A DNA stretch of 64,000 nucleotides from an uncultured Ignavibacteriales bacterium (GCA_964518635.1 CAZFGK010000002.1:101803-165802); one strand, 5' to 3'. Shown: positions 4,278 through 21,852, counted from the first letter of the stretch. Translations and numbers: made by a program. Notes: generated by a model from the letters alone, not told the origin.

Positions 4278-4558
4278 TGAAAAGCTACAACGATCTTCGA
4301 AAACAATTCCCACGCGATATCTTTCAGCAGGTCATGCAGTACATTGCGTGGCAGAATCGTCTCTCGATGACCGCGATTGTCACTCTCCCGCAGGCAATCG
4401 CACTCGCACAGTTGCTGGAAAGCCACCCGGGAAAGATGATTGATGAGTTTCAGTATGCAGTGATCAAGGAGACCTTTCTCAATAATCCAAATGTTGAGCA
4501 GGACTCTGATCAGATCACACAATTGTCGGAAGCGTTGAAGTCTGCCTTACATTGGTAG
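4278..4558 (+). CDS. Hypothetical small protein
   Basis: ATG at 4278 (MKSYNDLRKQF...) is preferred over the track start at 4181, which overlaps the glycosylase gene. A terminator hairpin follows. No recognisable motif. Confidence 0.4.
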
Positions 4559-4587: not shown

Positions 4588-4728
4588 ATCTGTGGGCGGC
4601 AGACGCCCTCGTCTGCCCCTCTTCTCACCCTGAGCCTGTCGAAGGGTCTGCTTTCTCTTCGGTGCCCCACTGCGTATGCAAGCGCAGCCTGCAGAGCGTT
4701 TGGTTCCAGGTCTGTATTTCTTCCGGAT

Positions 4729-4977
4729 TAGGTGGCGTACCCCTTTCAAGGTGCGAAGTCAGTGAAGCACCTTTCGCGATTCTGCGGCTCGAATTATGCC
4801 GCACCCGACTACCGCCAATCACCCGCGCATGCAACCAGTCCGCGACAATAGTGACGATTCAGACAGCGGTCATCGTCCAAATGGAAGAGTCTATTCATTG
4901 ATTTGAAAACACGAGAGGCTCACCACGTTCGTCGATCACATCACTGACTTCGCACCCTAAAACGGGTGCGCCACCCA
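4729..4977. mobile_element. MITE-like element, copy A (~250 bp, hairpin-containing terminal inverted repeats)
   Basis: Left end is TAGGTGGCGTACCCCTTTCAAGGTGCGAAGTCAGTGAAGC. Right end is TCACTGACTTCGCACCCTAAAACGGGTGCGCCACCCA, its inverted complement. The interior aligns along its length with copy B at 6197-6448, with non-triplet indels. Confidence 0.55.
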
Positions 4978-5031: not shown

Positions 5032-5343
5032 CTATTTCACTTGTTTTGATACCTTGATGTACTCCTGTAGCGCTTCCATATAGCCCGCGTAAGCTTTTCG
5101 CCCTACGGCCGTAAGCGTAAAGCGAGTCTTCGGCTTTCTGTCCTCAAATTGTTTCGTCGCACGTATGTATTTGGCCTCTTCCAGCTTGAGGAGATGGGTG
5201 CTCAGATTTCCATCGGTTGCGCCGGTCAAATCTCGTAGAAATACGAAATCCGCCTCCCGGACACTGACTAGGATTGTCATCACTGCCAATCGTAGCGGTG
5301 CGTGTATCACGAGATCAAGCGCTTCTAAGGGTTTCATTATCAT
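5032..5343 (-). CDS. Winged-helix transcriptional regulator (HTH_34/ArsR-like)
   Basis: 103 aa with LVIHAPLRLAVMTILVSVREADFVFLRDLTGATDGNLSTHLLKLEEAKYIRATKQFEDRKPKTRFTLTAVGRKAY, the classic winged-helix pattern. Confidence 0.7.
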   Translation of the reverse strand: MIMKPLEALDLVIHAPLRLAVMTILVSVREADFVFLRDLTGATDGNLSTHLLKLEEAKYIRATKQFEDRKPKTRFTLTAVGRKAYAGYMEALQEYIKVSKQVK

Positions 5344-5349
5344 TGGACG

Positions 5350-5994
5350 TCATTTTGCATTCAGGCTACGCACGCTTCGCCACAAAAGGTATCCGGGAAT
5401 TAAGTAACCCGGAATCACGATGGATGCCATAATCAAGGGATAGTATTTGTCGGGGAGTAGCATCATAATGACAGCCCCGTACCACCAGGACAATCCGCCC
5501 ATCTTGAACGACAATAGCCCCATGATATGTCCCGAAGAATAGACCGCAATCCCTGCCAGTATAGAAATCAGAACGTACGTCGCTCGCGGTGGGAAATAGT
5601 GTAAGATAGGATTGCCAAACACGATTACCGCGGCAGCTATCCCAGTGGCGAGCCACACGCCATCGTAGGTATGTTCCGAATGGGTCTGAACATGCGCACG
5701 GTTTCGATGACGACCCATTAGAATTACACTAATAATACCTCCTATCGGCATCAGGATTGCCCATGGAAGCCAGATGTCCCGCCCGGGATCCCTCTGTTCC
5801 AATATGTAGGTTAATATGCAAGCGACAAATAGTAGCGCGCCCCACACGAAATAAAAAGCGCTCCTATCGACTACCGTGGATTTGGTACGCGCGATCATTT
5901 CACTTGCTATTGCCAGCATCTTTTGGGCGTCCGAATCTTGCTCACGAGAGTTTTCCATCTTTATCCTTTCCGTTGTCAAAGTACTTTGCAACAC
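5350..5994 (-). CDS. Integral membrane protein (about 5 TM helices), co-oriented with the regulator
   Basis: 214 aa with several long hydrophobic segments (FYFVWGALLFVACILTYIL, WLPWAILMPIGGIISVILM, and others). A 6-nt gap separates it from the downstream regulator gene. Confidence 0.6.
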   Translation of the reverse strand: MLQSTLTTERIKMENSREQDSDAQKMLAIASEMIARTKSTVVDRSAFYFVWGALLFVACILTYILEQRDPGRDIWLPWAILMPIGGIISVILMGRHRNRAHVQTHSEHTYDGVWLATGIAAAVIVFGNPILHYFPPRATYVLISILAGIAVYSSGHIMGLLSFKMGGLSWWYGAVIMMLLPDKYYPLIMASIVIPGYLIPGYLLWRSVRSLNAK

Positions 5995-6196
5995 AAAGTA
6001 TATAGAGCATACGTTATTTGCAAGTATTTTGTTACAAGAGACTCTAATTCAAGATGTATATTTCAATCACGGTGCAAAGGCGACTACATTGAAGTCCGGG
6101 CTAGACCCCATTGCACGAGTATTCTGATCCTTTGAGGACCGGTGGCCTAGTTGATCACTTTGCTCCTCTTTTGTGGCCCGGGCTTGCGACCCGGGC

Positions 6197-6448
6197 TAGG
6201 TGGCGCACCCCTTTTAGGGTGCAAAATCAGTGAAGCACCTTACACGTTTCTACGGCTCGAATTATGCCAACTCTATCTTCACGAATCACCCTCGCGTGCA
6301 ACCAATCTGCGACAAAAAGTAACAGTTCAGACAGTGGGTAATCGTTGAAATGGAAGAGTCTGTTCATTGATTTTAAAATACGAGGGACTTACAGCGTTCG
6401 TCGATCACATCACTGATTTCGCACCCCAAAAGGGGTGCGCCATCCACC
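6197..6448. mobile_element. MITE-like element, copy B
   Basis: TAGGTGGCGCACCCCTTTTAGGGTGCAAAATCAGTGAAGC ... TCACTGATTTCGCACCCCAAAAGGGGTGCGCCATCCACC, in the same orientation and with the same internal blocks as copy A (CGGCTCGAATTATGCC, TGCAACCA, AAATGGAAGAGTCT.TTCATTGATTT, CGTTCGTCGATCACATCACTGA). Confidence 0.55.
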
Positions 6449-6490
6449 GGTCTCTTGCAGGAACTCACTAAACTTTAGTACGATGTCGCT

Positions 6491-7957
6491 GTGACTAGTA
6501 AATTAAAACGCTTAGCTCAGATGGTACTCTTGTCACTTGCCGCTATGGTGTGTTGCCTTGCAGCGTTTGTCTGGCTGCATCTGCCTGACTCTCAACCGCC
6601 CACATTCCCAAGACACATCATTGATGATGTTGCAATGATGCATCCAACTCGGGTGGACAGTTTGTTCACAATTGTCTCTGAGCAGGAGATTGGAGATGCC
6701 ATTCGCTACGCCCAATCTAAGGGTTTGCGAATTTCTATAGCGGGTCGGAGGCATAGCATGGGAGGCCATACGCTGACGCCTCAAGGGGTCACACTCCTCA
6801 TGACTGAATTTAATGACGTTTTGTCTTTTGATTCGGCATCGCAAACTGTCACCGTTCAAAGCGGGATTACCTGGGATACACTTCAGGCATATTTGAATCA
6901 GATTGGTTACGCGGTCATGTCGATGCAGGGGCCAAATATCTTTACTGTGGGTGGTTCGATGAGTGTCAACGCGCATGGTTGGGCTAAATTCAAGGAGCAG
7001 GTCGGAGAGAGCATCGTCTCTTTCAGACTGGTGCTTGCCGATGGTACCATTGCAACTTGTTCGCCATTTGAAAACGTTGAGCTCTTCAAACTTGCAATCG
7101 GTGGTTTCGGACTTTTCGGAGTTATCTCGGACGTCACCCTCCGAGTCGTAGAGAATGACATGCTTGCGCGATCCATTCGTCAGGTACGCGTGACTGATAT
7201 CGAGAAGATTTTTCGTTCAGAGTATGAACTTGATAGTAGCAGCGTCTTTTTTCATGCGGATCTTTCGATCGCTCCATCGAGCTTATTGCAAGAAGGGACA
7301 TTCTCTATTTTTCAGCGATTGCCTTTCGGTACTGATTCCATCAGCGTGACGATACAGCCTGAAAACAATGTAAATCGTGACCGGTTTTTTCTTCACCTAT
7401 CGCGACAATACGATTGGGGGAAAGAGCTGCGCTGGTGGCTACAAAAAAAACTCGTTCGCGGAGACACCCTCTCTCGAAACAACACGATGCATTCACCCTA
7501 TCAGCGACTCCAATACTATTCTCCAGAGAACGCCGACATATTGCAGGAGTATTTTGTACCAAGTGGGCGTGTTGTTTCTTTCTCGGACAAGCTTAGAGAA
7601 ATTGTCTCTTCAAGCAAGGCAAACCTCATTAACTGCACCGTACGGTCAATCCGGAAAAGTGAAGTCCCTTTCTTGAACTATGCAAAACAGGAAGGATTTG
7701 GTTTTGTGCTCTACCTAAATGTGCGAAAGGACAGTACCGGAAGAGCCGCTGACTCCCTTCTTACATCAAAGCTAATTGATGCCTGTCTGTCAGATTCAGG
7801 CACTTTCTATCTTCCCTATTTACCTTTCTACTCGGCTAAGCAGCTTCGAACTGCGTATCCGGAGATTGACGAATTCATAAGACTGAAAATTCAGTACGAT
7901 CCGAATGAACTCTTCGGGAGTCTTTTTTACGAGAGACTCAAAGCTCTGCTCCATTGA
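6491..7957 (+). CDS. Membrane-anchored FAD-binding (PCMH-type) oxidoreductase
   Basis: 488 aa with an N-terminal TM helix, the FAD_binding_4-like motif RISIAGRRHSMGGHTL and a C-terminal YDPNELFGSLFY typical of FAD-linked oxidases. Confidence 0.75.
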   Translation: MTSKLKRLAQMVLLSLAAMVCCLAAFVWLHLPDSQPPTFPRHIIDDVAMMHPTRVDSLFTIVSEQEIGDAIRYAQSKGLRISIAGRRHSMGGHTLTPQGVTLLMTEFNDVLSFDSASQTVTVQSGITWDTLQAYLNQIGYAVMSMQGPNIFTVGGSMSVNAHGWAKFKEQVGESIVSFRLVLADGTIATCSPFENVELFKLAIGGFGLFGVISDVTLRVVENDMLARSIRQVRVTDIEKIFRSEYELDSSSVFFHADLSIAPSSLLQEGTFSIFQRLPFGTDSISVTIQPENNVNRDRFFLHLSRQYDWGKELRWWLQKKLVRGDTLSRNNTMHSPYQRLQYYSPENADILQEYFVPSGRVVSFSDKLREIVSSSKANLINCTVRSIRKSEVPFLNYAKQEGFGFVLYLNVRKDSTGRAADSLLTSKLIDACLSDSGTFYLPYLPFYSAKQLRTAYPEIDEFIRLKIQYDPNELFGSLFYERLKALLH

Positions 7958-8344
7958 GCCACTCGCTCCCCCCCTCCAAAAACATATTGACTCTCACCCC
8001 TGAATCCACCACTTTTTGGGTTCTATGAGGCAGATGTTGACCCCTGTGTGTTCATTGCCGGAGAGTAGAATCCGGACAGGTCGTCTGTTCTCTGAAAGCC
8101 AATACTCTGGGCGCCAATATTCCGTGAGGCAATCTTCTGGGCGCCCCTACCATCTCATCCAACCCGAGCAACAACCCCTCCCTCTAGTCATGGTCAGGAT
8201 AAAACCTGTCCGCCGGAGCCACCCCCTACCAACGCCTGTTTTCATAGGCTAACCAGGGGGGACGGAGCCAGACCACGCGATGAACGGAAACCAGACGACA
8301 ATGAGTCCGAACCTTCCCTTCCCCGCGCGGTTGCAGGTGAACGT

Positions 8345-8875
8345 ATGACCCCCTTCGCCGAACCGACACTCATCAATCGAAACGTCCTCATGCTCAATCA
8401 GAACTATGAGCCGCTGACGGTCTGTTCTGCCCGACGGGCGATTGTCCTCGTTTTTCAGGGGAAGGCCGAGTTGATCGAAACTACCGAAGGGCTGTTTATG
8501 ACCTCGGTGCGGAGTCAGTTTGCGCTTCCGTCGGTGGTGCGGTTGTCGCAGTATCGACGGGTGCCGTACAAGCGGATCATGCTGACGAGGAAAAATGTCA
8601 TCATGCGGGACGGGCACAAATGCCAGTACTGCGGGACCTCACGCGGGCCGATGACGGTCGATCATGTACTGCCGCGCACGCGCAAAGGACCGGATTCGTG
8701 GGAGAATATGGTTTGCGCCTGTGTACGTTGTAATAATTCCAAAGGGGATCGTACGCCGGAAGAGGCGGGGTTACATCTGAAGAAACGGCCGACGCGGCCG
8801 TCACATATTCATTTTATCCAACGTCATATCGGTACTGCCGACACCAGATGGCGACCGTATCTGTTTATGGATTAG
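8345..8875 (+). CDS. HNH endonuclease
   Basis: 176 aa with DGHKCQYCG..MTVDHVLPRTRKGPDSWENMVCACVRCNNSKGDRTPEEAG, i.e. the HNH/ZnF motif. Its last ~20 codons are repeated downstream (see the repeat features). Confidence 0.85.
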   Translation: MTPFAEPTLINRNVLMLNQNYEPLTVCSARRAIVLVFQGKAELIETTEGLFMTSVRSQFALPSVVRLSQYRRVPYKRIMLTRKNVIMRDGHKCQYCGTSRGPMTVDHVLPRTRKGPDSWENMVCACVRCNNSKGDRTPEEAGLHLKKRPTRPSHIHFIQRHIGTADTRWRPYLFMD

Positions 8876-8885
8876 GCGGGCTTTG
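8810..8885 (+). repeat. Direct repeat copy 1 (the genuine 3' end of the HNH gene plus 10 bp)
   Basis: CATTTTATCCAACGTCATATCGGTACTGCCGACACCAGATGGCGACCGTATCTGTTTATGGATTAGGCGGGCTTTG. Confidence 0.9.
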
Positions 8886-8899
8886 CCGTTTTTGGGGTT

Positions 8900-9394
8900 A
8901 TGCCTGCTGCTACGCGAAACAAAAGTACGGCAAAGAGTCAAATGATTCCAAAGAAAGAGCTTTGGTCGTGCCCCGTCTGTGCAGCGCAGTTTGCCATTCG
9001 AAATCAGTCCCACTCATGCGGAGACTATAGCGTTGAAGGCTTCCTAGAGGGAAAGCCGGACCGACTTGTGGACCTGTTTCATGATTTCATTCGCGAGTAT
9101 CGAAAAATCGGAGAATTAACTCTCCACCCAGTCAAGACACGCATTGCGCTTCTTTCAAAAGTGAGATTTGCTTCAGTAAACAAGATCGGAAAAGATTGTC
9201 TTGTTGGTCATCTGGTTCTGACACGACGAGCAAATCATAAGTCTCTGTTTACAAAAATCGATAATTTGAATGACCGGTTCTATGTGCATCACTTTAGACT
9301 AAGTCACATGAACGAAATCGACGAAATATTTATTGGGTACATGCGTGAGGCCTATGACTATGGTGAACGAAAGCATTTGAAAGGTGCCAAGTAA
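8900..9394 (+). CDS. DUF5655-like protein (Cys-x2-Cys..His-x-Cys N-terminus)
   Basis: 164 aa with WSCPVCAAQFAIRNQSHSCG followed by a ..VKTRIALLSKVRFASV..FYVHHFRL..EIDEIFIGYMREAY pattern, recalled from the DUF5655 family. An alternative ATG lies at 8942. Confidence 0.55.
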   Translation: MPAATRNKSTAKSQMIPKKELWSCPVCAAQFAIRNQSHSCGDYSVEGFLEGKPDRLVDLFHDFIREYRKIGELTLHPVKTRIALLSKVRFASVNKIGKDCLVGHLVLTRRANHKSLFTKIDNLNDRFYVHHFRLSHMNEIDEIFIGYMREAYDYGERKHLKGAK

Positions 9395-9430
9395 ACGCAA
9401 ACCGAACAAAATCAGACTTTAGGGGGGAGC

Positions 9431-9505
9431 CATTTATCCAGCGTCATATCGGTACTGCCGACACCAGATGGCGGCCGTATCTGTTTATGGATTAGGTGGG
9501 CTTTG
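9431..9505 (+). repeat. Direct repeat copy 2 (orphan copy of the HNH 3' end)
   Basis: CATTTATCCAGCGTCATATCGGTACTGCCGACACCAGATGGCGGCCGTATCTGTTTATGGATTAGGTGGGCTTTG. It still encodes FIQRHIGTADTRWRPYLFMD-stop. Confidence 0.9.
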
Positions 9506-11753
9506 TCCAGATAACTCTCGTTACTTCATCGAAGCGCGGATGTTGTCGCACTAGTTCCCAGTGAGGGCTATGTCGTGACCACAATACCATCGGATCACGT
9601 TCTTCTACACATCTCTCAAGCATCCGAATCGTGTCATCAGGCAATCCTGCAGAAGAAGCAGCAATTGCCAGATAGGAGGGGGCTACAAACTCAAGTCGTG
9701 AACGTCCGGCGAGTTCATCGTACACCGCCCGAGCCAGTGCGTGACGGTTCATCTTGTAGTAGATCCAACCGGTCAAACCGAGCATCCACGGATCACGACC
9801 GGAACTCTTGATCGCGGGCAAGGCCAGTTCCACCGCTCTTTCGTACTGACCGTCAAAGGCATAAGCACGAATCTGATTCCATTTGGCAAAGAATGCCGTG
9901 GGAACCTGAGTCACTGCCTTTTCTGCAAACTCAATTGACTCACGGTTCCGACCTGCGTGACCAAGTACTATAGAATGCTGAGTAGAAATCCAGCCATTGA
10001 GCGGATCTTCGTGGAGTGCCCGTTCAGATTCGGAGAGAGACTTTTCGATAGTGAACAGCCCGCTTGAATAGGACCACGTAGTACGCTGGCTTCGCGCCCG
10101 GGAATTGCGCGGATCGATTGCCAATGCCCGCTCCATTGTTGCGTAGGCCCCTGTGAAGTCCCACTCAAACTGCTCTTGTACGCAAGCGAGCGTTGCCCAT
10201 GCCTCAGAATGTTCGGGATTCAACTGCAAGGCGTGCGTGACAAGCTCTTTTGCTTTTGTCATCGCAACCGCGGCAGGAGCCTGACCATATGTCGCCAGAT
10301 TGCGATAGGTATCCGCAAGCCAAACCATCGGATCAACATAGTTTGCGTCCAGTGCGATGGCCCGTTCAAAGAAGGGAATCGCTTCGAGCATGTACGGGCC
10401 GCGTTTTTCCATGAGGGCACGACCGCGGAGGAAGAGTTCGAAGGCTTCGATACTCCGAGTCTTCCGAACTCCCGCCGCCTTCTCGGCATCGCTGTCCATC
10501 GAGGTTCTGAGTCGACTGACTATCGCAGAAGCGATTCGATCCTGAATCTCGAAGATGTCGGTCATCTCCAGATCAAATCGCTCGGTCCAGAGTTGATAGC
10601 CATCACGTGCATTGACCAGTTGAGCGGTGATACGCAGGCGATTTCCGGCCCGCTGAACTGTTCCTTCAAGGACCGTCTGCACTTCAAGCTTCTCGGCAAC
10701 TGTCCGCAAGTCTTCCCGTTTCCCCTTGAATGCAAAACTTGATGCCCGGGCAGAAACGCGAAGACCGGGGAGTTGCGAAAGGACATTGGTTATTTCGACG
10801 GTGATTCCATCTGCGAAATACTCATACGATGCATCGCCGAGGTTTTCAAACGGAAGCACTGCAACAGAATTCTCCAATGAAGGCGCGATTGAAGCAGTAT
10901 TCGATGCGATGTTTTCGAGGGACATGCGAATCTCTCGCATGGAGCTCGGTCGATCATCTGTTGACTTTTTCAGGCATCGCTTCACAAGATCACGTAAAGC
11001 GCCGGGTGCAGAAGTTGGTAGAGATGTCCAGACTGGTTCACGTTCGAGAATTTCGACAATGAGATCCGGCGAGCTTTCGGATTTGAATGGAGGTTGTCCC
11101 GAGAGCATTTCGAAGAGCAGACAGCCGAATGCCCAGATATCAATCCGGAAATCGACCGGCTTACCGCGAAGTTGCTCAGGGCTCATATACGGGACAGTTC
11201 CCAACAATTGCCCGGCACGAGTAGCGGAGAGGTTTGCCGTCTGATCTGAAAACTCCGAACCGACGAGTGCGCCCTGGATCAGTTTCGCGAGTCCAAAATC
11301 GAGAACTTTTGAGACACCGTCAGACGTTATCATGACATTCCCGGGCTTCAGGTCCCGATGAATGATGCCGCGGTCATGAGCTGATTCTATTGCCGAAGCA
11401 ATCTGCGTGGCGATCTTTGTTGCCGCAGTTGCTTCCAGTTTGTCACGAGTCAGCAATTCGGCGAGAGAATCACCTTCGATGAACTCCATGACCAGATACT
11501 CGATCTCATCCTGTACGCCGATGTCGTACAAGACACAGATGTTGGAGTGATTGAGGGCCGAGACCGCTCTCGCCTCGATTTCAAACCTGCGCTGGGATGA
11601 TGAATCAAGATTCGCGTTGATCGGCAGGACTTTTACTGCGACGAGACGATTGAGGCGCGTGTCTCGGGCCTTGTAGACCTCACCCATTCCCCCTTTTCCT
11701 GCCAAGCCGATTAGCTCATAGGGGCCGAGACGGGTACCGGATGGAAGGGTCAA
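9492..11753 (-). CDS. Ser/Thr protein kinase with a TolB-N-like middle region and C-terminal TPR repeats
   Basis: 753 aa with the Hanks kinase motifs GKGGMGEVYKA, VAVKVL, HRDLKPGNV, DFGLA and SPEQ, then VAVLPFENLG.. and TPR-like repeats. Its stop codon lies inside repeat copy 2. Confidence 0.9.
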   Translation of the reverse strand: MTLPSGTRLGPYELIGLAGKGGMGEVYKARDTRLNRLVAVKVLPINANLDSSSQRRFEIEARAVSALNHSNICVLYDIGVQDEIEYLVMEFIEGDSLAELLTRDKLEATAATKIATQIASAIESAHDRGIIHRDLKPGNVMITSDGVSKVLDFGLAKLIQGALVGSEFSDQTANLSATRAGQLLGTVPYMSPEQLRGKPVDFRIDIWAFGCLLFEMLSGQPPFKSESSPDLIVEILEREPVWTSLPTSAPGALRDLVKRCLKKSTDDRPSSMREIRMSLENIASNTASIAPSLENSVAVLPFENLGDASYEYFADGITVEITNVLSQLPGLRVSARASSFAFKGKREDLRTVAEKLEVQTVLEGTVQRAGNRLRITAQLVNARDGYQLWTERFDLEMTDIFEIQDRIASAIVSRLRTSMDSDAEKAAGVRKTRSIEAFELFLRGRALMEKRGPYMLEAIPFFERAIALDANYVDPMVWLADTYRNLATYGQAPAAVAMTKAKELVTHALQLNPEHSEAWATLACVQEQFEWDFTGAYATMERALAIDPRNSRARSQRTTWSYSSGLFTIEKSLSESERALHEDPLNGWISTQHSIVLGHAGRNRESIEFAEKAVTQVPTAFFAKWNQIRAYAFDGQYERAVELALPAIKSSGRDPWMLGLTGWIYYKMNRHALARAVYDELAGRSRLEFVAPSYLAIAASSAGLPDDTIRMLERCVEERDPMVLWSRHSPHWELVRQHPRFDEVTRVIWTKPT

Positions 11754-11884
11754 GCGAACACTCTGCGAGCGAGAATCGTGATCATCGCCTGAGGATAACA
11801 GCGATTCGAATTGAACGGAAGATGTTTCTTTTCTGTACTGATTCTAGATCGACGTCAGATTATTGCTGGAGTCATGATCTCCGT

Positions 11885-11956
11885 ATTGTCCAGCTTCATA
11901 TCGGCACTGCCGACACCAGATGGCGACGGTATCTGTTCATGGATTAGGTGGGCTTG
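11885..11956 (+). repeat. Direct repeat copy 3 (orphan, more diverged)
   Basis: ATTGTCCAGCTTCATATCGGCACTGCCGACACCAGATGGCGACGGTATCTGTTCATGGATTAGGTGGGCTTG, which encodes IVQLHIGTADTRWRRYLFMD-stop. Confidence 0.85.
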
Positions 11957-12683
11957 AAAGACACACATATTCGTCTGCCGCTGCTGTGAGCATGTCCGTT
12001 GGATAAATCTCATGATACACGTCTCGCTGGATGAACGAATTGGCAAGTTCAATGACAGCAGGAATGTTGTAATTTCCGCTCACAAGTGGAAGCGAATAGT
12101 AGACAAAGAGAACTGAATCAAAAGTATAGGTTCGGCGAAGTCCCATGTCAGGAGTGGATCCTACAGAAATCTTCCCACCCAATTCAGCTGTAAGCCATTT
12201 AATACTCGACCATTCTTGGGCAACCTGCAACGACTCTACACCTGGCGAGTGTACGAACTGGACACTTATGCTGTCTGCATCGATAACATCGTAGCGAATT
12301 TTGAAAATGACAGACGTGTCAGCAGTAAACTCACAGTCGACAGTATCAGGCCAGGTTCGTCGAGTCTCTATTATTGCCTTCGCCCTCCCCTTTGGTAGCC
12401 GTCTGGAGAAGCTGGAGAGACTATCAGACTTGAATCCGATGACTTCCCCATCAGGATAAAGGAATCTTATCTGCGGTCGGTCGCCGGTGGCGACAGCATA
12501 GCGGAGGTCGCTGGGTTGGAATCCGTAGGGATAGTCGATGTAACAATACCACGCCAGAACCTGACCACTGACCAGCACGGTATCATTGTTTGCCGGAGCG
12601 ATGACTGATTTTTCGGTGCAGGTCACTGACGCAAAGACACAGAGCAGCAAGGCGATCACACTTGCAAATTGACTTTTTTTCAT
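11937..12683 (-). CDS. Hypothetical lipoprotein (paralog 1)
   Basis: Start chosen at MKKSQFASVIALLLCVFASVTC (signal peptide plus lipobox Cys). Shares its architecture with the next gene. Its stop lies inside repeat copy 3. Confidence 0.55.
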   Translation of the reverse strand: MKKSQFASVIALLLCVFASVTCTEKSVIAPANNDTVLVSGQVLAWYCYIDYPYGFQPSDLRYAVATGDRPQIRFLYPDGEVIGFKSDSLSSFSRRLPKGRAKAIIETRRTWPDTVDCEFTADTSVIFKIRYDVIDADSISVQFVHSPGVESLQVAQEWSSIKWLTAELGGKISVGSTPDMGLRRTYTFDSVLFVYYSLPLVSGNYNIPAVIELANSFIQRDVYHEIYPTDMLTAAADEYVCLSSPPNP

Positions 12684-12788
12684 CAAGCCCTCCAAGCTGC
12701 GTGTTGTCCTGCAGCTAATTAAACGAAACACTTACAAATTCAGAATCCAAGTTCATCGCAGAGATTGCGCTGTATATGCAGCATTCTC

Positions 12789-13535
12789 TTATTGTGGATG
12801 ACGCGAACTGGCGAGGCAAATATAGTAGCTCCCGTTTGTCCATAGTGGGACAGGAGAGATCTCTCGACTCGAATCCGCAAGCAGGAGTTCATTTGCTGCA
12901 ATTGAAACTTCAATGACGTTCGCGCTCCGGTCGGCAAGGGGAACATGATACCAGACGGAAACACTGTTGGGGTACTTGTTCACTACTCGCCATTCCAACG
13001 CAGCAACATCTGACTTCAAATTGAGGACATCATCGATCTTGCGATTGAATGATTTCAAAATAGACACTTCTCTCCATGCACCAAGTGTATCGATACCATT
13101 CTCATAGTAAAATGACAGGTACAGTGTGTCCGGGTTGGTCACCATATAGATCAGGTCGAAAATTATAGACGTGTCTCTTTGAATACGAATTGTGAAGGTA
13201 TCCAGAATCGACCACCGGGTAATGATGTCGAATGTCCAATACCCCGTGTCAAACAGCTGTCGAAAAGAAGATCGCCCATCGGTCCTGAATTCTTTCGTAG
13301 AGCCATCTAGTTTTGTCGCACGAATCAGCGGGCATTCGCCTGTATAAACCGCCATTCGCGGATCAATATTTGGCGGATAGAACGGGTTATTCGCCTCACA
13401 GAACCAGCCATTTACGACGCCCGTGACTCTTACTGATTCCCCGTTCGGTGGATTGGTGGTAAGACGATTCTCTGTGCAGGAGATTGCGAGCAACACTCCA
13501 AAGAAAATGACTATGAACAGCTTTAAGAAACGCAT
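12789..13535 (-). CDS. Hypothetical lipoprotein (paralog 2)
   Basis: Start chosen at MRFLKLFIVIFFGVLLAISC. Alignable landmarks with paralog 1: V.V.G.V..W.C, DTS(I/V)IF, and a C-terminal Y(I/V)CL(A/S)S. Confidence 0.55.
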   Translation of the reverse strand: MRFLKLFIVIFFGVLLAISCTENRLTTNPPNGESVRVTGVVNGWFCEANNPFYPPNIDPRMAVYTGECPLIRATKLDGSTKEFRTDGRSSFRQLFDTGYWTFDIITRWSILDTFTIRIQRDTSIIFDLIYMVTNPDTLYLSFYYENGIDTLGAWREVSILKSFNRKIDDVLNLKSDVAALEWRVVNKYPNSVSVWYHVPLADRSANVIEVSIAANELLLADSSREISPVPLWTNGSYYICLASSRHPQ

Positions 13536-13763
13536 TCTGTTGTACCATCCGGAAAACAATTCTTCCAATACTATGATAGATAGACATTACACCCACCCGC
13601 AAGGGGGTCGCAGAGTTCGCGCCAGACATAAAGGATGAATTCTCATCGGAAAAAACGCTTCTCGGTCGACCTGTTTGCGGACCCTGAGCGGCGATCCTTC
13701 TGTGAGTCAGCTATTGTCATACAATTCAACATGTTCGCTCATCAGAATTGAAATGTTTGACTT

Positions 13764-14264
13764 ATGCTTACAGGCATGAACACCCCGCAAGACTGTGCAA
13801 AGATCAAGCCGTACAAGCCCCGTCATATTGCATGCAAGGAGATCGCTCAGATCGACGGATGGTCTGTGAAGGTCTATACGATTACAACGAAAGACAGTTT
13901 TCAATCAAATCAGATTCTCAAGAATGCAGTTGCACAACTTCCATCATGGCTGGCACATGCTCAGACGACTGAATTCGAAACCTACGGTGCAGCTTTTCTG
14001 ATCGTGCATGAAGGGTTGGACGGTGTCTGGACCCTTATCTGTTGGTGGCTCGGCGGTGAGATGCTCCATTGCGAGACTTACTATTCTTCCTATAGTGATC
14101 CTAGTCGATTTACAATGCGCCCACGGGAGGGATTCATGGCATGTGTCTGGGAGATGGCGGTCATTATTCATGAACGAGAACAATGGATATCGCACGTCTT
14201 GACTTACTCAACTGCGCCTGACTTCAGGGCCTATCTCAATACCACCCTCAACGCCGAGATTTGA
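13764..14264 (+). CDS. Hypothetical protein
   Basis: 166-aa ORF with tight spacing to the downstream GNAT gene (1-nt gap). No motif recognised. Confidence 0.45.
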   Translation: MLTGMNTPQDCAKIKPYKPRHIACKEIAQIDGWSVKVYTITTKDSFQSNQILKNAVAQLPSWLAHAQTTEFETYGAAFLIVHEGLDGVWTLICWWLGGEMLHCETYYSSYSDPSRFTMRPREGFMACVWEMAVIIHEREQWISHVLTYSTAPDFRAYLNTTLNAEI

Positions 14265-14760: not shown

Positions 14761-15266
14761 AACGCTCCGATATTAACACCCCACCCTGCTATTTTGATCG
14801 CTACATCGAGCAGATCGAAGATATTGATATCACGAAAGCATTTGAAGAATCATTGAGCGACCTGGATTCACTTGATGTCGAACGGCTAGCAGGATACGGC
14901 GACCTTTCCTACGCACCGGGGAAGTGGACTTTGAAGCAACAATTCCAGCACCTGATTGATGTCGAGCATGTGTTTGCATATCGCTCTCTTCGCGTGGGTA
15001 GAAATGACAAGACCTCCCTCCCCGGATTTGATCAGGACGTTTTTGCGTCAAATGTCGATGTCTCAAAACGTTCGCTCAAAGGGCTCGTAGACGAACTCAT
15101 TCTCGCGCGAAAGCTCACGCAACTTTTGTTTGCATCGTTTGACGACATCGCTCTGCAACGAACCGCATTGGCGAGCAACATCGAGATGTCACCGCTGGCG
15201 TTCGGGTTTACTATTCTTGGACATCAGAAACATCACCTGAAGCTCATTGAAGAACATTATCGATAA
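14757..15266 (+). CDS. DinB-family (DinB_2) metal-dependent protein
   Basis: 169 aa with QHLIDVEHVF...ILGHQKHHLKLIEEHY, a His triad pattern. A 4-nt ATGA overlap links it to the GNAT gene. Confidence 0.75.
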   Translation: MKRSDINTPPCYFDRYIEQIEDIDITKAFEESLSDLDSLDVERLAGYGDLSYAPGKWTLKQQFQHLIDVEHVFAYRSLRVGRNDKTSLPGFDQDVFASNVDVSKRSLKGLVDELILARKLTQLLFASFDDIALQRTALASNIEMSPLAFGFTILGHQKHHLKLIEEHYR

Positions 15267-15423
15267 CAGCACCTTTCGGAGTGAAGTGGATTATAGTAAA
15301 GATGTCATTACGATGGCAATCCACAGCATCGCTGGACACAGATTACTTGGCCTCACCATGTGGTAGGGGTCTGTTTCTCATCAGCAAGTTCATTGACAAG
15401 ATCGAATATCCTGCTCCCCAATA

Positions 15424-15774
15424 GTGGCGGTTGATTGCCAAGAGAGTATCTTGTGGCGGATTTCACAAAGTTCCGTGTGTACGGAAAGGAGATCGGTCAC
15501 GAAACGTCGTCAATGGGATGCCAAGACGAAGGCCAAAATCGTCCTCGATGGATTGTCCGGCAAGCCGGTGAGCGAGCTGTGCAGCCAGTATCAGATCAGT
15601 CAGACTCAGTACTATCAGTGGCGGGATAAATTCCTTGTCGAAGCCCATCGTGCTTTTGAAGTGAAAGCTGACGTTGGTGAAGTGGTTCGTCTGAAAGCAA
15701 AGACCGAGAAGCTGGAACGGATCATCGGAGTCCTGACTATCGAACTAGAAAAGACAGAGTACGAACTACGATGA
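15424..15774 (+). CDS. IS3-like transposase OrfA (HTH plus leucine-zipper-like tail)
   Basis: RRQWDAKTKAKIVLDGLSGKPVSELCSQYQISQTQYYQWRDKFL...LKAKTEKLERIIGVLTIELE. The start codon is uncertain because there is no in-frame ATG. Confidence 0.7.
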   Translation: MAVDCQESILWRISQSSVCTERRSVTKRRQWDAKTKAKIVLDGLSGKPVSELCSQYQISQTQYYQWRDKFLVEAHRAFEVKADVGEVVRLKAKTEKLERIIGVLTIELEKTEYELR

Positions 15775-16502
15775 GACGAGCATCGGAATCGGTTACCACC
15801 CGAAACGAATCAACTCTTGCATCTCTTCGTGAACTGAAAGCCGACCACCCCTTCTGGGGATACCGCCACCGCTGGGCTCATCTTCGGTATGTCAATCGTC
15901 TCGATGTGAACAAGAAGCGTGTCTACCGCCTGATGAAACAGCATCGCTTGTTAGCAACGCAGACCACGCACGAGATCCCTCGTTTACCTATGAGACCGAA
16001 GCCACGAGCAGATCGTCCGAATCAGTGGTGGGGGATCAATATGACCAAGGCGATGACGGAGCGTGGCTGAACCTATATTGTGCTGATGAAGAACTGGTAC
16101 ACGAAGCAGATAGTCGGTCATCACTGCGGAACGACGGCGACCTCACGAGAATGGTTGCTGGCACTGGAGCGAAGATTGCAACGGCAGTGTCAGGATGGAT
16201 CACGTAACGAGCAGACTCATCTGATGTCAGATAACGGTTCCCAGCCGACCTCACTGACCTTCATGAAGAGTTGCAGCATCCTTGTTGTGCAGCAGGCCTT
16301 CACGAGTTACAACAACCCGAAAGGGAACGCTGACACCGAACGGATGATACGGACATTGAAGAAGGAACTCATCTGGCTTCGAGAGTGGCGCGATCCACAT
16401 CAGTTGTCAGATAAAGTCAGTCGATGGATAGAAGAGTACAATGCGACCTGGCTGCATGCGGCGCTGAATTACCGGACGCCGAACCAAGTCGCAGATACCT
16501 AG
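15771..16502 (+). pseudogene. IS3-like transposase OrfB (rve integrase core) interrupted by an in-frame TGA at 16068-16070
   Basis: ORFs 15771-16070 and 16080-16502 are in the same frame. The sequence reads ..WWGINMTKAMTERG-stop-TYIVLMKNWYTKQIVGH..LMSDNGSQ..PKGNADTERMIRTLK. The first catalytic Asp position reads Asn (GINMT). Confidence 0.75.
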
Positions 16503-19263: not shown

Positions 19264-19800
19264 AGCTATCCCTTCCTGTCTAGTGCGGAATTCACGCTTT
19301 CGCGCTGTTTCGCACGTGGTTTACCTGTTATTCGTTCAAAATATCTGAACTCAGCAGCGGTGTGCTGATGGTTACCACATAATCTGTCGGGGGTTAGGGG
19401 AATGCCCGACGAGAGTCAAGGAGCATGGTGCCTACGGAAGTATACTAGAAACTCGCGTGTATTGCATATCAAATTCTGTGCCTGTATGCCCATCTATAAT
19501 TCTTTAAGATCAATCTCTCATTCGCATTACTCGACGTTGAATCTCTTATCCTAAAGGTAAGAGTTGAATCTGAGTTGTCTAAAAGGGGGTTGCGGAAAAA
19601 CATCGATTGATGTTCATTTGACATGATGATTTCAAGAAGTGATCAGATGAGATACAAATCTCGCATTCAAGTCAGTTCTTACTAATCACAGGCCTCTTCT
19701 TTCGCTGAATTTTCCGAGTGAAAACTCGGGCTCAGATAACAGGATTTGGAATAGCCAGCTTGCTGGCGTTCTATCGGTCTGAAATGGCGAAGGAGGTCTT

Positions 19801-21852
19801 ATGCGTCCAAAGTTCCTTAAACTCACTCTTCCCCTCTTGATTTCATTAGTAATATCAGCGAAGGCGGACACTGTCTATGTGACAGTGGACAACCTCTCCG
19901 GAGTTACTGCGAGTGATGTCCACTTGTACTTTTCTGGTGGAGGTGGTGTGCTCTTCGTCGCACCACTCACAGTCATCGCTCCAGGATGCCCTGTTCCTGT
20001 TGTCACGACTAACCCACCAGTTGTCAGCAATCAGGTTGATATTGATTGGGGAATCTCCTGTGTGATGAATGGGACATCTGTCTCTCTCGTTGTCGCAAGC
20101 CCAAATGGTCCTCTCGTTTTGGATTCCATTTGCTGGACAGTTTCGGGCTCTGTTGTCGGGTGTCAGACATTCGGCATTGGTCTCATCGTCATGCCTCCTC
20201 CAGGGCCGTTTGGTGCGATCAAAATTCGCACTCGGTGTGTACCGAAAGGCCCAGTCATTTGCACCAAGTGGTTTCCGCCGGGAGTCATTCGGCCATTCTG
20301 CTGGGCGAGGTGGTGTTGTATCCCCAATCGACAGATTTACTACCGCGCATATTACTGTCCATTCCCGAACAGAATTTCGCGTTTCTTTGAGACCGGTCCG
20401 TGGATTCCTTTGGACTCAGTATGGAGAAAAGGTGGAATGAAGGGACCGTTCTATGGGTGGATTTTCAGAACAGTACCCCCACCGCCTGACTCAATTATTC
20501 AGGGTCCTCCTCCGGAAATTCAACAACTCGCACGCCCCCCGTATGCCCCATGGGATGAAGAGTTGCAAGTTGTCCGCACCGATGACACAGGCAAGTCTTG
20601 GCAGCAAGGACACGATTTCATCGAGTCATTCTTCGATATCTTCCACCAATTGGTAGTCACCAGCGATACTACACCAGCCCTGATGACACTTTCCGACCAC
20701 TTGATGGCAAATGCCCCCTGTTGGGATTCGGCTCGAATGGAAGTTACAGAATTGCGCCTTGAAATGCAGCAACTGCAATTGGTAAGTCCAATTCCGCAGT
20801 TACCTCCAATGATCGGTGCCCTCAACGGGATAGAGATCGAGCTCAATGCCCTCTCCCTACAGGGGCTTGCTGGAAATCCAGCGCCGCCACCCTCTTACTT
20901 CAACCTTTCGAACGCGTTCATGGGGTTGTCGTCTCAAATCAACTCTCTTGCGGGGTTATCGCCGCGATTTGTGCACGCATCACAAGATCTAGCGCTCATC
21001 GCACAAGGGTTTCAGGTATCTGGTAGTGCTGTCGCGGCAGGGCTCCTGACGCAGGATCAACAGGATGCGTTTAGATGGGGACTATTCAACCGTTTTGCGC
21101 AACATAGCGAAATGGTTGCAACAGCAATGTCTCCTCATGCGCGTGTGCAGCTTTCCGCTCCTCAGATCGAGTGGGAGCAATCGACGATAAATGGAGTCAT
21201 GGTCGTCACCCAGTCTGATCAGTCTTGCCCTGTCGATACTTCTATGCAGAATCTATCCTCAATGTCGCGTTTTGATATAGACTTGATGCCCCACTTGTCA
21301 TCAGCTCAGATGGCAGTCTGGTTTAAAGTGCCGGGCGCATTAGCGCAGTACCAAGTATTTGCTCCTACCGACGGTCAGACCTTGCCAACTTTACCTCTCG
21401 TGATCGGAGACATCGACGATGACAATTGTGTTGGCTTGACTGATCTCCTGCAAGTGACTGCCGATCAGGGAGAGGGCGGTCTTGCTGCCGATTCAGTCCC
21501 TTCGTCAGATGTGAACCATGATGGTATTGTTGATACAACGGATTTGCAGATTGTACAGAACAATCTCGGTCAATGCGGAGACAACTGGATTCCACTAGTG
21601 CCAGCATGCTCGCTTCCGAGTTGCTGTGTCGGTCCAGTCGTTGGCAATGTTGACTGCGATCTTGCGCAATCAGTTGATATCGCTGATTTGACAGTTCTCG
21701 TTGACCACTTGTTCATTTCGTTTGCGCCTTTGTGCTGCAACAACGAAGCAAATGTCGACGGTGATCTTCTGGTGAGCATTGATATCGGCGATCTGACCGT
21801 TCTCGTCGATCACTTGTTCATATCATTCACACCACTGCTACCTTGTCCTTAA
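19801..21852 (+). CDS. Secreted protein of unknown function with one canonical dockerin-like segment and a twin DI(A/G)DLTVLVDHLFISF C-terminal module
   Basis: 683 aa with a signal peptide (MRPKFLKLTLPLLISLVISAKA), GGAGG upstream, a Cys/Trp/Pro-rich N-terminal region, and GDIDDDNCVGLTDLL..SDVNHDGIVDTTDLQIV. It ends ..VDIADLTVLVDHLFISFAPLCC..IDIGDLTVLVDHLFISFTPLLPCP. Confidence 0.75.
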   Translation: MRPKFLKLTLPLLISLVISAKADTVYVTVDNLSGVTASDVHLYFSGGGGVLFVAPLTVIAPGCPVPVVTTNPPVVSNQVDIDWGISCVMNGTSVSLVVASPNGPLVLDSICWTVSGSVVGCQTFGIGLIVMPPPGPFGAIKIRTRCVPKGPVICTKWFPPGVIRPFCWARWCCIPNRQIYYRAYYCPFPNRISRFFETGPWIPLDSVWRKGGMKGPFYGWIFRTVPPPPDSIIQGPPPEIQQLARPPYAPWDEELQVVRTDDTGKSWQQGHDFIESFFDIFHQLVVTSDTTPALMTLSDHLMANAPCWDSARMEVTELRLEMQQLQLVSPIPQLPPMIGALNGIEIELNALSLQGLAGNPAPPPSYFNLSNAFMGLSSQINSLAGLSPRFVHASQDLALIAQGFQVSGSAVAAGLLTQDQQDAFRWGLFNRFAQHSEMVATAMSPHARVQLSAPQIEWEQSTINGVMVVTQSDQSCPVDTSMQNLSSMSRFDIDLMPHLSSAQMAVWFKVPGALAQYQVFAPTDGQTLPTLPLVIGDIDDDNCVGLTDLLQVTADQGEGGLAADSVPSSDVNHDGIVDTTDLQIVQNNLGQCGDNWIPLVPACSLPSCCVGPVVGNVDCDLAQSVDIADLTVLVDHLFISFAPLCCNNEANVDGDLLVSIDIGDLTVLVDHLFISFTPLLPCP

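Follow-up and report, generated by a model that had tools for sequence, protein, structure and literature searches.

The last ~75 bp of an HNH endonuclease gene occur three times in direct orientation in a 64,000-nucleotide stretch of DNA from an uncultured Ignavibacteriales bacterium (GCA_964518635.1 CAZFGK010000002.1:101803-165802; hereafter the window), and the copies bracket two single-gene cassettes. The first copy (c1) is the functional end of the gene; the second and third (c2 and c3) are orphan gene ends. A DUF5655 gene is located between c1 and c2, a Ser/Thr kinase-TPR gene between c2 and c3, and a lipoprotein gene follows c3. Judging by the names of homologues, the source would belong to Zixibacteria (GN15). 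In its workings, the locus can be likened to an array of att-flanked cassettes without an integrase, and we do not assign it to any named family. In the reading that we favour, with a probability of roughly 45%, circular DNA made of one gene and one copy of the repeat would have been inserted repeatedly at a fixed point of the HNH gene end, in attP × attB-type reactions catalysed in trans.

A repeat search of the region identifies one direct family of three copies, with 8813-8885 as the reference, 9433-9505 at 96% identity and 11885-11957 at 86%. The repeat unit (R) measures 73-76 bp at its full extent and runs from HNH codon 157 through the last codon (176, i.e. 20 codons) and the stop to ~10 nt beyond; the distances from start to start are 620 and 2452 nt. 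A 29-nt core of R, allowing up to 3 mismatches, matches three times in the window compared to 0 matches in 100 shuffles. The R profile (nhmmer) matches c1-c3 alone in the 64 kb (E 3e-27 to 7e-26; next best E 0.2). All three approaches confirm the copies that an earlier reading of the bare sequence (the sequence-only reading) had placed here, and the search for further 75-bp copies that it proposed adds none to the three in the window. At 12690-12830, 13500-13770 and 15200-15450, no fourth copy rises above shuffled sequence in nhmmer and Smith-Waterman comparisons. A degraded fourth R between or after the lipoprotein genes, or near an IS3 copy further downstream, was rejected on the same searches.

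Both edges of R are sharp, as had been claimed. Immediately to the left of 8813, in-register identity over 10 nt is 1/10 for c2 and 5/10 for c3, compared to 9-10/10 inside R; allowing a 1-nt indel extends the c2 similarity to 8809/8810. Identity falls to background within a few bases on either side. The right edge reads ...GGGCTTTG in c1 and c2 and ...GGGCTTG in c3, and the left and right edges of c2 and c3 agree to within a few bases.

The orphans still encode the C-terminal HNH peptide. c1 and c2 differ at 3/76 positions, both coding differences are silent, and the two copies specify the identical peptide FIQRHIGTADTRWRPYLFMD followed by the stop codon. c3 specifies IVQLHIGTADTRWRRYLFMD and a stop codon; compared to c1, 4 of its changes replace an amino acid and 3 are silent. 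The replacements are F157I, I158V, R160L and P170R, and R160 is invariant in the HNH family. The orphan peptides are therefore as first described, but the characterization of their changes as mostly silent or conservative fails for c3, where replacements account for 4 of the 7. Variants are shared between c1, c2 and c3 in a mosaic pattern, and the tails of c2 and c3 are identical. Decay is graded, with c3 more affected than c2, and grows with the distance from the HNH gene. c3 is decaying, and from the gradient we infer that it is the oldest orphan and that c2, which retains the exact peptide, was orphaned last.

Array states with 0, 1 and 2 cassettes are all present among the window and its relatives. 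The closest relative, L002 (Logan SRR12822863), is 99.9% identical to the window and lacks 8886-9432, i.e. one R together with the DUF5655 cassette. Its sole HNH-adjacent R is a c1/c2 hybrid that is of c1 type at 8821 and of c2 type at 8854 and 8877. The point of change therefore lies within the identical 32-nt stretch 8822-8853, indicating that the copies recombine, or have recombined, inside this interval. In L002, the kinase gene abuts the intact HNH end, and the junction of the kinase-upstream DNA, c3 and the lipoprotein gene is reproduced independently. The presence/absence polymorphism predicted by the sequence-only reading is thus found, with its breakpoints inside the repeat.

Empty sites, also predicted, are represented by two relatives in which the HNH gene lies directly against a lipoprotein gene. 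L001 shares 92.5% nucleotide identity with the window over the aligned HNH region (918 nt), and its intact HNH gene converges on the lipoprotein gene. Positions 2500-3303 of L001 are colinear with 11889-12692 of the window, across the junction of c3 and lipoprotein gene 1. In L181 (88% identity), the intact HNH gene abuts a gene resembling lipoprotein gene 2. A third relative, L180 (85.5% HNH nucleotide identity over the aligned contig), has the intact HNH gene abutting a kinase gene (80.6% nucleotide identity), inside which the contig ends. The kinase/R junction recurs there, and the kinase stop codon occupies the same position within the HNH end as in the window. The tail of R and the native 3' end of the kinase gene share a 4-nt overlap (TTTG) in L180. 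The convergent overlap with the HNH end is 11 nt in L001, L180 and L181. A mosaic origin of the L180 R was considered and dropped, the divergence profile being just mildly uneven.

The comparison indicates that the ancestral junction is the one between the HNH and lipoprotein genes, and that c3 is this junction parted from the gene body. It was pointed out earlier that the kinase and lipoprotein genes both place their stop codons inside the repeat. These minus-strand stop codons are indeed found there (9492 and 11937), but that of the lipoprotein gene represents the ancestral convergent overlap and not a product of insertion.

Since the window and L002 are both metagenome assemblies, and a 32-bp core in a 73-bp repeat could mislead a k=31 assembler into an L002-like path, an assembly artefact was considered together with chance similarity. 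We regard the probability of either as negligible. Shared k-mers cannot create junctions of cassette flanks with mid-gene sequence, the junction at c3 is seen independently in L002, and the shuffles do not reproduce the core pattern. The DUF5655 protein is recorded in the NCBI contig only, with none in the L002 sample.

The relatives can also be read as remnants of an old static array with losses only. The order HNH-R-kinase-R-lipoprotein, later with DUF5655, would have arisen from rare accidents. Gene conversion would have kept the copies similar, and deletions between repeats would account for all variation among the relatives, with no repeated use of the site for insertion. This would be consistent with the retention of both junctions in relatives (kinase/R in L180, lipoprotein/R in L001 and L181) as well as with the mosaic variants and identical c2/c3 tails, and a deletion between 73-bp repeats with a 32-bp identical core is mechanistically trivial. 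However, two or three independent losses would be required, the shared left edge of c2 and c3 is left unexplained, and neither L001 nor L181 carries any c3-specific substitution. In addition, c3 differs from the functional copies at 7-10/63 nt, compared to 13-15/63 for the functional end of L180. An orphan that predates the split from L180 should have diverged further, barring gene conversion. We therefore consider such an array rather improbable.

The positions of the features are collected in the table.

Table. Features of the HNH gene-end array and its surroundings (window coordinates).
Feature	Position	Strand	Description
Conserved non-coding stretch upstream of HNH	7969-8344	+	376 nt; left portion of the ~918-nt block of homology to L001
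HNH endonuclease gene, target gene	8345-8875	+	176 aa; Pfam HNH/HNH_5/HNH_4
R copy 1 (c1), functional gene end	8810-8885	+	Codons 157-176, stop, 10 nt
Crossover interval	8822-8853		32 nt identical in c1 and c2; the L002 hybrid switches from c1-type to c2-type here
Cassette 1, DUF5655 gene alone	8886-9430	+	ORF (open reading frame) 8900 or 8942 to 9394; Pfam DUF5655 E 3e-8; absent from L002
R copy 2 (c2), orphan gene end	9431-9505	+	Exact peptide kept; kinase stop codon inside
Cassette 2, Ser/Thr kinase-TPR gene	9492-11753 (cassette 9506-11884)	-	Pkinase E 1e-52 and TPR
R copy 3 (c3), decaying orphan	11885-11957	+	Right side is the ancestral HNH/lipoprotein junction
Lipoprotein gene 1	11937-12683	-	Native convergent HNH neighbour; last codons SPPNP and stop antisense to R; abuts intact HNH in L001
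Lipoprotein gene 2, paralogue	12789-13568	-	Gene resembling it (68% nucleotide identity) abuts intact HNH in L181

To assess how widespread the arrangement is, we screened 80 genome and 80 metagenome HNH loci plus ~20 contigs from exact-protein look-ups, several of them duplicates, by peptide searches and self-BLAST (180 fetched loci, ~1 Mb of flank on each side). Duplicates of HNH coding segments within a locus were found in the window lineage and in L107 only, and they are always 3'-terminal, downstream and direct. L107 (Ga0164310_10003331, of a second Zixibacteria lineage, 73% HNH identity) is the one further case among ~165 distinct other HNH loci (~2 Mb of flanks). An orphan HNH end is located 2 kb downstream of its gene, and the repeats (4409-4449 and 6455-6495) are 41-48 nt long, 90% identical and end at the stop codon. 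Of the four changes that distinguish the two copies, all are silent. The 2-kb insert contains an Rrf2 regulator gene and a response-regulator gene. The locus had been called a recombination hot spot used repeatedly. The graded decay of c3 and c2 fits the repeated use, but with one further case in ~165 loci the gene end is not a general hot spot of the HNH family. Overall, the cautious interpretation offered by the sequence-only reading is largely borne out.

When short direct repeats dispersed over 2.04 Mb (166 loci after duplicate removal) were counted in a blind census, 16 repeat pairs were obtained, the majority of which are hairpin-type intergenic or within-gene repeats. One pair, in the Ignavibacteria metagenome-assembled genome contig CAZPRG010000077.1 (L006), duplicates ~74 nt of the 3' end of scpA (8677-8757 and 9707-9785) around a single TonB_C lipoprotein gene (8833-9642). 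The last three codons and the stop codon of the functional scpA come from the insert. In its relative L005, the scpA site is uninterrupted, and the gene end found there is orthologous to the L006 orphan together with the terminator that follows it. Judging from these loci, the process is rare and recurrent and, because scpA of L006 has the same anatomy, not specific to HNH genes.

The substitutions in the orphans inform on the origin of the paired ends. Counted from the copy sequences and pooled over c2, c3, L107 and L006, 14/23 differences are silent. The silent fraction expected under neutrality is ~0.22 (0.19-0.27), and for duplication in situ followed by decay it is estimated at ~0.38 (p ~0.02). 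This enrichment for silent changes between orphan and functional copies suggests that both ends of a pair were still functional when they diverged. Such a history is expected if the incoming DNA bears its own gene end, as attP does, which is why the trans attP × attB route ranks first. The absence of a local recombinase and the shared edges of the orphans add to this ranking. As the c2 and c3 edges agree and silent changes are enriched, a defined site appears more plausible than accidents.

The favoured route would start from an HNH gene that converges on and overlaps the lipoprotein gene. In each insertion, new DNA entering at about codon 157 would separate the last ~75 bp of the gene from its body, and an intact ~75-bp end would be supplied or regenerated. 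The former end would be displaced outward as an orphan, c3 first and c2 last, with the newest insert beside the gene body. The gene end in the chromosome would recombine with an R-like site carried by circular gene-plus-R DNA, with the enzyme acting in trans, in analogy to cis-mobilizable elements (CIMEs). The direct repeats could then recombine in their identical core, removing and possibly adding cassettes and giving rise to strain variants. The sequences show the anatomy, the polymorphism, the empty sites, the graded decay and the recurrence at other loci; the succession of insertions, the circular forms and an enzyme that acts in trans are what we infer.

Several observations weigh against this route. 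The scan of the 64-kb window contains no integrase or integrase remnant, and the cassettes are, on their sequences, too compact for ordinary decayed elements. R does not form a significant fold as DNA (both strands of all three copies, z -1.0 to +0.4), and silent sites in the last 9 HNH codons are no more conserved than in the rest of the gene, i.e. no extra nucleotide constraint is seen. The closest DUF5655 homologue has no R flanks, so that a unit in which a gene travels together with R is putative. The difference between L002 and the window fits a simple deletion equally well. The repeat edges of L107 differ from those of R in extending 41-48 nt up to the stop codon. The additional HNH case is weakly significant once the ascertainment of the window itself is set aside (~1/15 dispersed repeats, p estimated at ~0.17). 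In L006, the functional upstream copy matches L005, the orphan holds the extra changes, and the duplicated segment ends before the stop codon.

L006 fits a target duplication made in situ as well as, or possibly better than, an attP × attB event. In this alternative, a staggered break, a pair of nicks ~75 bp apart or replication template switching at the gene end would have captured a foreign or ectopic fragment, and fill-in would have duplicated ~75 bp on either side of it. No att-bearing element or integrase would be involved, and the survivors would be those duplications that span a stop codon or a convergent overlap. Since the L006/L005 pair fits equally well and the ~75-bp size is shared, we keep it as a strong rival, unlikely as it is overall. 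The geometry of L006 compared to L005 is [R']-insert-[R']-original downstream, with an R' of ~74 nt, the size seen in the window. As noted, L005 is closer to the functional copy, and the additional changes are confined to the orphan. The TTTG overlap in L180, the mRNA-sized single-gene inserts with short flanks and the lack of a recombinase among the scanned window ORFs are also in line with it. On the other hand, both window events would need the identical two cut positions, and the silent differences exceed the estimate for this scenario given above. c1 and c2 differ at 3/76 positions even though identity reaches 99.9% between the strains with and without cassette 1, an argument that is valid only if L002 represents the pre-insertion state. 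To our knowledge, no bacterial transposition system produces duplications of 40-76 bp.

Silent-only differences would be expected as well of orthologous gene ends from two lineages. The orphans could accordingly be truncated HNH ends that hitch-hiked on fragments from a relative with the kinase or lipoprotein gene as native HNH neighbour, joined by homology on one side and illegitimately on the other. Some relatives do have a kinase or lipoprotein gene directly beside HNH, and the repeat edges differ between the window and L107. That two independent ends should coincide to within ~5 nt in a gene of 531 nt is nevertheless unlikely (roughly 0.02), and replacement by a linear fragment makes no duplication. 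c2 is also not L180-like, as it differs from the HNH end of L180 at 13/63 positions and from c1 at 2. We consider this origin very unlikely.

The favoured trans route calls for a recombinase, and the whole window was scanned with Pfam, taking ORFs of at least 130 aa as genes. No tyrosine, serine or Y1 recombinase, intI or reverse transcriptase is found among the scanned ORFs. The description of the inserts as single genes with no integrase nearby holds within this scope. The sole mobile-element gene is a broken IS3 copy (15424-16502). It is located 3.5 kb past c3 among small accessory genes (GNAT, DinB). Its HTH_21 part spans 15771-16070 and its rve_3 part 16080-16502, and the second frame is interrupted; the element is probably inactive.

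Folding of R had been proposed as a check of the cassette-array reading, and it came out negative: an attC-like structure was rejected for lack of a significant fold. An imperfect hairpin at 8830-8858 can be attributed to amino-acid conservation. Its free third-position pair pairs in 12/47 homologues, with no covariation. Rfam has no match to the R region and none in the window apart from tRNA-Ser. A degenerate C-terminal coding motif gave 0 matches in viral contigs, on which ground a phage/attP origin was rejected. The exact core pattern gave 0 matches in metagenome contigs, a collection that evidently does not include the sample of L001.

A dispersed element of the REP (repetitive extragenic palindromic) or MITE (miniature inverted-repeat transposable element) type was rejected, with three copies in 64 kb that are all in register with the HNH end; this also disposes of the alternative, raised in the sequence-only reading, of a common dispersed element unrelated to the gene. 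A diversity-generating retroelement was rejected as well, the scanned ORFs containing no reverse transcriptase and the differences not being adenine-specific, and so was a CRISPR-like reading. Membership of an integron fails on attC structure and intI.

Each interval between the copies contains one gene, as first described: ORFs and Pfam confirm DUF5655 on the plus strand and Pkinase-TPR on the minus strand. The GC fraction of cassette 1 is 0.45-0.47, compared to 0.58 for the HNH gene. The closest homologue of its protein, at 77% amino-acid identity, is found at another locus, in contig L099 (ERZ27299533 k119_1316245) from the same sample as L181. There it lies directly upstream of the homologue of window ORF 19801-21852 (compare 19687-19991 in the window). 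Because the two genes are 10 kb apart in the window, the DUF5655 gene has changed position relative to the ORF 19801-21852 gene. The kinase-TPR gene is called as 731 aa (9492-11687, minus strand), and the DNA upstream of it measures 131-197 nt. The genes of L002 and L180 aside, its full-length homologues reach ~52% identity at best. On this evidence, each cassette is a compact single gene that is foreign or has been relocated.

The kinase (9492-11687) matches the PADLOC kinase models PD-T4-6 (E 2e-79) and mad6 (E 2e-71). As the match covers the generic kinase domain alone, a defence role of this cassette is possible.

Further repeats were observed in the window and in the surveyed loci. In the window, a ~255-nt MITE-like element with ~35-nt terminal inverted repeats is present at 4723-4977 and 6191-6446 (82% identical), and the pair brackets the minus-strand genes 5032-5343 (HTH_34) and 5350-5994. 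In L013, 38-nt terminator-like hairpin repeats (6684-6721 and 8643-8680) flank one ORF; in L071, perfect 44-nt repeats (9033-9076 and 9840-9883) do the same. Both could represent an intergenic form of the insertion anatomy described above or could simply be dispersed repeats of an ordinary kind. Ten JGI contigs from different samples that share the HNH protein P0003 (L083-L092) all break within the same 25 nt, 507-530 nt past the HNH stop codon, which suggests a repeat or a variable junction at the break in this lineage.

The target of the array is a nuclease related to IscB. The protein matches NCBIfam guided_IscB with E 5e-19, which falls below the family cut-off because the HNH part alone matches. 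The HNH domain of TbaIscB in the PDB is matched with E 2e-15, and IscB/Cas9d HNH domains range from 2e-15 to 3e-8. Foldseek places Cas9d and Cas9 HNH domains at the top for the HNH model, in which the HNH domain alone is modelled confidently. The N-terminal motif NYEPLTVCSARRAIVL.FQGKAE aligns to the PLMP segment of TbaIscB with a non-significant score, and the AlphaFold2 pLDDT is 50-58 there. With a putatively PLMP-like N-terminus and an IscB/Cas9d-type HNH domain, the protein is probably IshB-like. The 119 other clusters listed contain homologues with 65-79% identity. The gene occurs once per fetched locus in Zixibacteria, Ignavibacteria, Bacteroidota, Cyanobacteria and Acidobacteria. The family appears to behave as a conserved single-copy host gene, and the gene is probably indispensable.

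The homology between the window and L001 begins abruptly at ~7969, the left flanks being unrelated. Between this point and the HNH gene (7969-8344), the two share large identical blocks including a 95-nt run. In this comparison, the stretch surpasses the coding body (93.6%) in conservation, which points to a functional non-coding element, a candidate lineage-specific non-coding RNA or leader. It has no Rfam match, its fold is not remarkable (z -0.5), and no similarity is present in 156 other HNH loci. An ωRNA was rejected for lack of homology in those loci and of a significant fold. A match search found no link between the stretch and R: the guide-target idea was dropped after no match of at least 9 nt was found to R ±30 nt on either strand.

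IshB proteins are described as IS200/IS605-associated PLMP+HNH proteins of ~180 aa (PMC10734217, PMC11610941). The window protein resembles them in its size, its IscB-type HNH domain and possibly its PLMP-like N-terminal motif, and the strongly conserved stretch is found upstream of the gene, where the ωRNAs of IscB lie. Differences from IshB and the OMEGA systems can also be observed. The window family is conserved in several phyla with one copy at each locus, the scanned ORFs contain no Y1 transposase (TnpA), Rfam gives no HEARO/ωRNA match, and the upstream stretch is not conserved beyond the closest relatives.

A broader proposal would be that the Zixibacteria/Ignavibacteria group harbours an unrecognised process of single-gene insertion at gene ends that does without a cassette-borne integrase. 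A fixed ~75-bp segment (41-48 bp in L107) would be duplicated or regenerated each time, and the window with two events, L107 and L006 would be its first examples. The arrays would be small and reversible, with the oldest members furthest from the gene, and a nicking enzyme, for example the IshB-like HNH protein itself, could set the fixed edges. We regard this proposal as doubtful.

The entry of single genes outside integrons and classical islands is poorly understood, above all in uncultivated phyla. The locus provides a small and clean example, with 0-, 1- and 2-cassette states in public data, a 32-bp crossover interval and a dated series of displaced gene ends, and its anatomy recurs in another phylum at a different gene. 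Should the ~75-bp unit be the substrate of an enzyme, this would constitute a compact, sequence-defined gene-insertion system. If no enzyme is involved, convergent overlapping genes would limit which insertions survive, and leftover gene-end repeats would drive gene loss at the strain level. A conserved, single-copy, IshB-like relative of IscB with a constrained upstream region is also of interest for the domestication of OMEGA nucleases. Compared to known tandem att-like gene-end repeats, the unusual features are the single-gene units, the lack of a recombinase, the ~75-bp unit and the recurrence at another gene.

Among known systems, accretion of the ICESt1-ICESt3 type offers a close parallel. 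Site-specific integration is documented to give rise to CIMEs and to tandem accretion at the 3' end of protein genes (PMC5704250). As in such arrays, the units in the window are flanked by direct repeats of the end of an intact target gene, are arranged in tandem without integration genes and have boundaries that coincide with the repeats. Repeated use of the gene-end site would have built both, and empty-site alleles exist for the window locus. Major differences are the absence of an integrase, a relaxase or a remnant of either from the 64 kb, and of a visible partner element, whether integrative and conjugative (ICE) or integrative and mobilizable (IME). The window units (0.5 and 2.4 kb) each consist of one ordinary gene and hardly any additional DNA, and the 73-76-bp R has no recognisable recombinase-site architecture.

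In tycheposon islands, new elements push older ones inward and leave partial-tRNA repeats (bioRxiv 10.1101/2020.12.28.424599). The ssrA islands of Dehalococcoides are reported to be built by repeated site-specific integration (PMC3146451). The window shares with these tRNA and tmRNA islands the displacement of older units from an intact gene by new arrivals, the scattered partial gene ends and the stronger decay of the oldest ones. In contrast, its target is protein-coding and its array is tiny (3 kb). The island elements carry tyrosine recombinases, unlike the scanned ORFs of the window.

The likeness to integrons lies in compact, single-gene, integrase-less cassettes that are split by a recurring site, with the newest presumably beside a fixed entry point. 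However, the window has no intI, attI or Pc, and R is not folded like attC. All units have the identical recurring site, which is part of a gene, and the cassettes are oppositely oriented with their own upstream DNA.

Known target duplications span 2-15 bp, and the repeat duplicated by CRISPR systems 28-37 bp. The duplications described here are longer (41-76 bp), neither an intact transposase nor a Cas1 gene accompanies them, and the inserts have no terminal repeats. They nevertheless share with these systems the same segment on both sides of the insert and its fixed edges, and the geometry of L006 compared to L005 conforms to this type of duplication.

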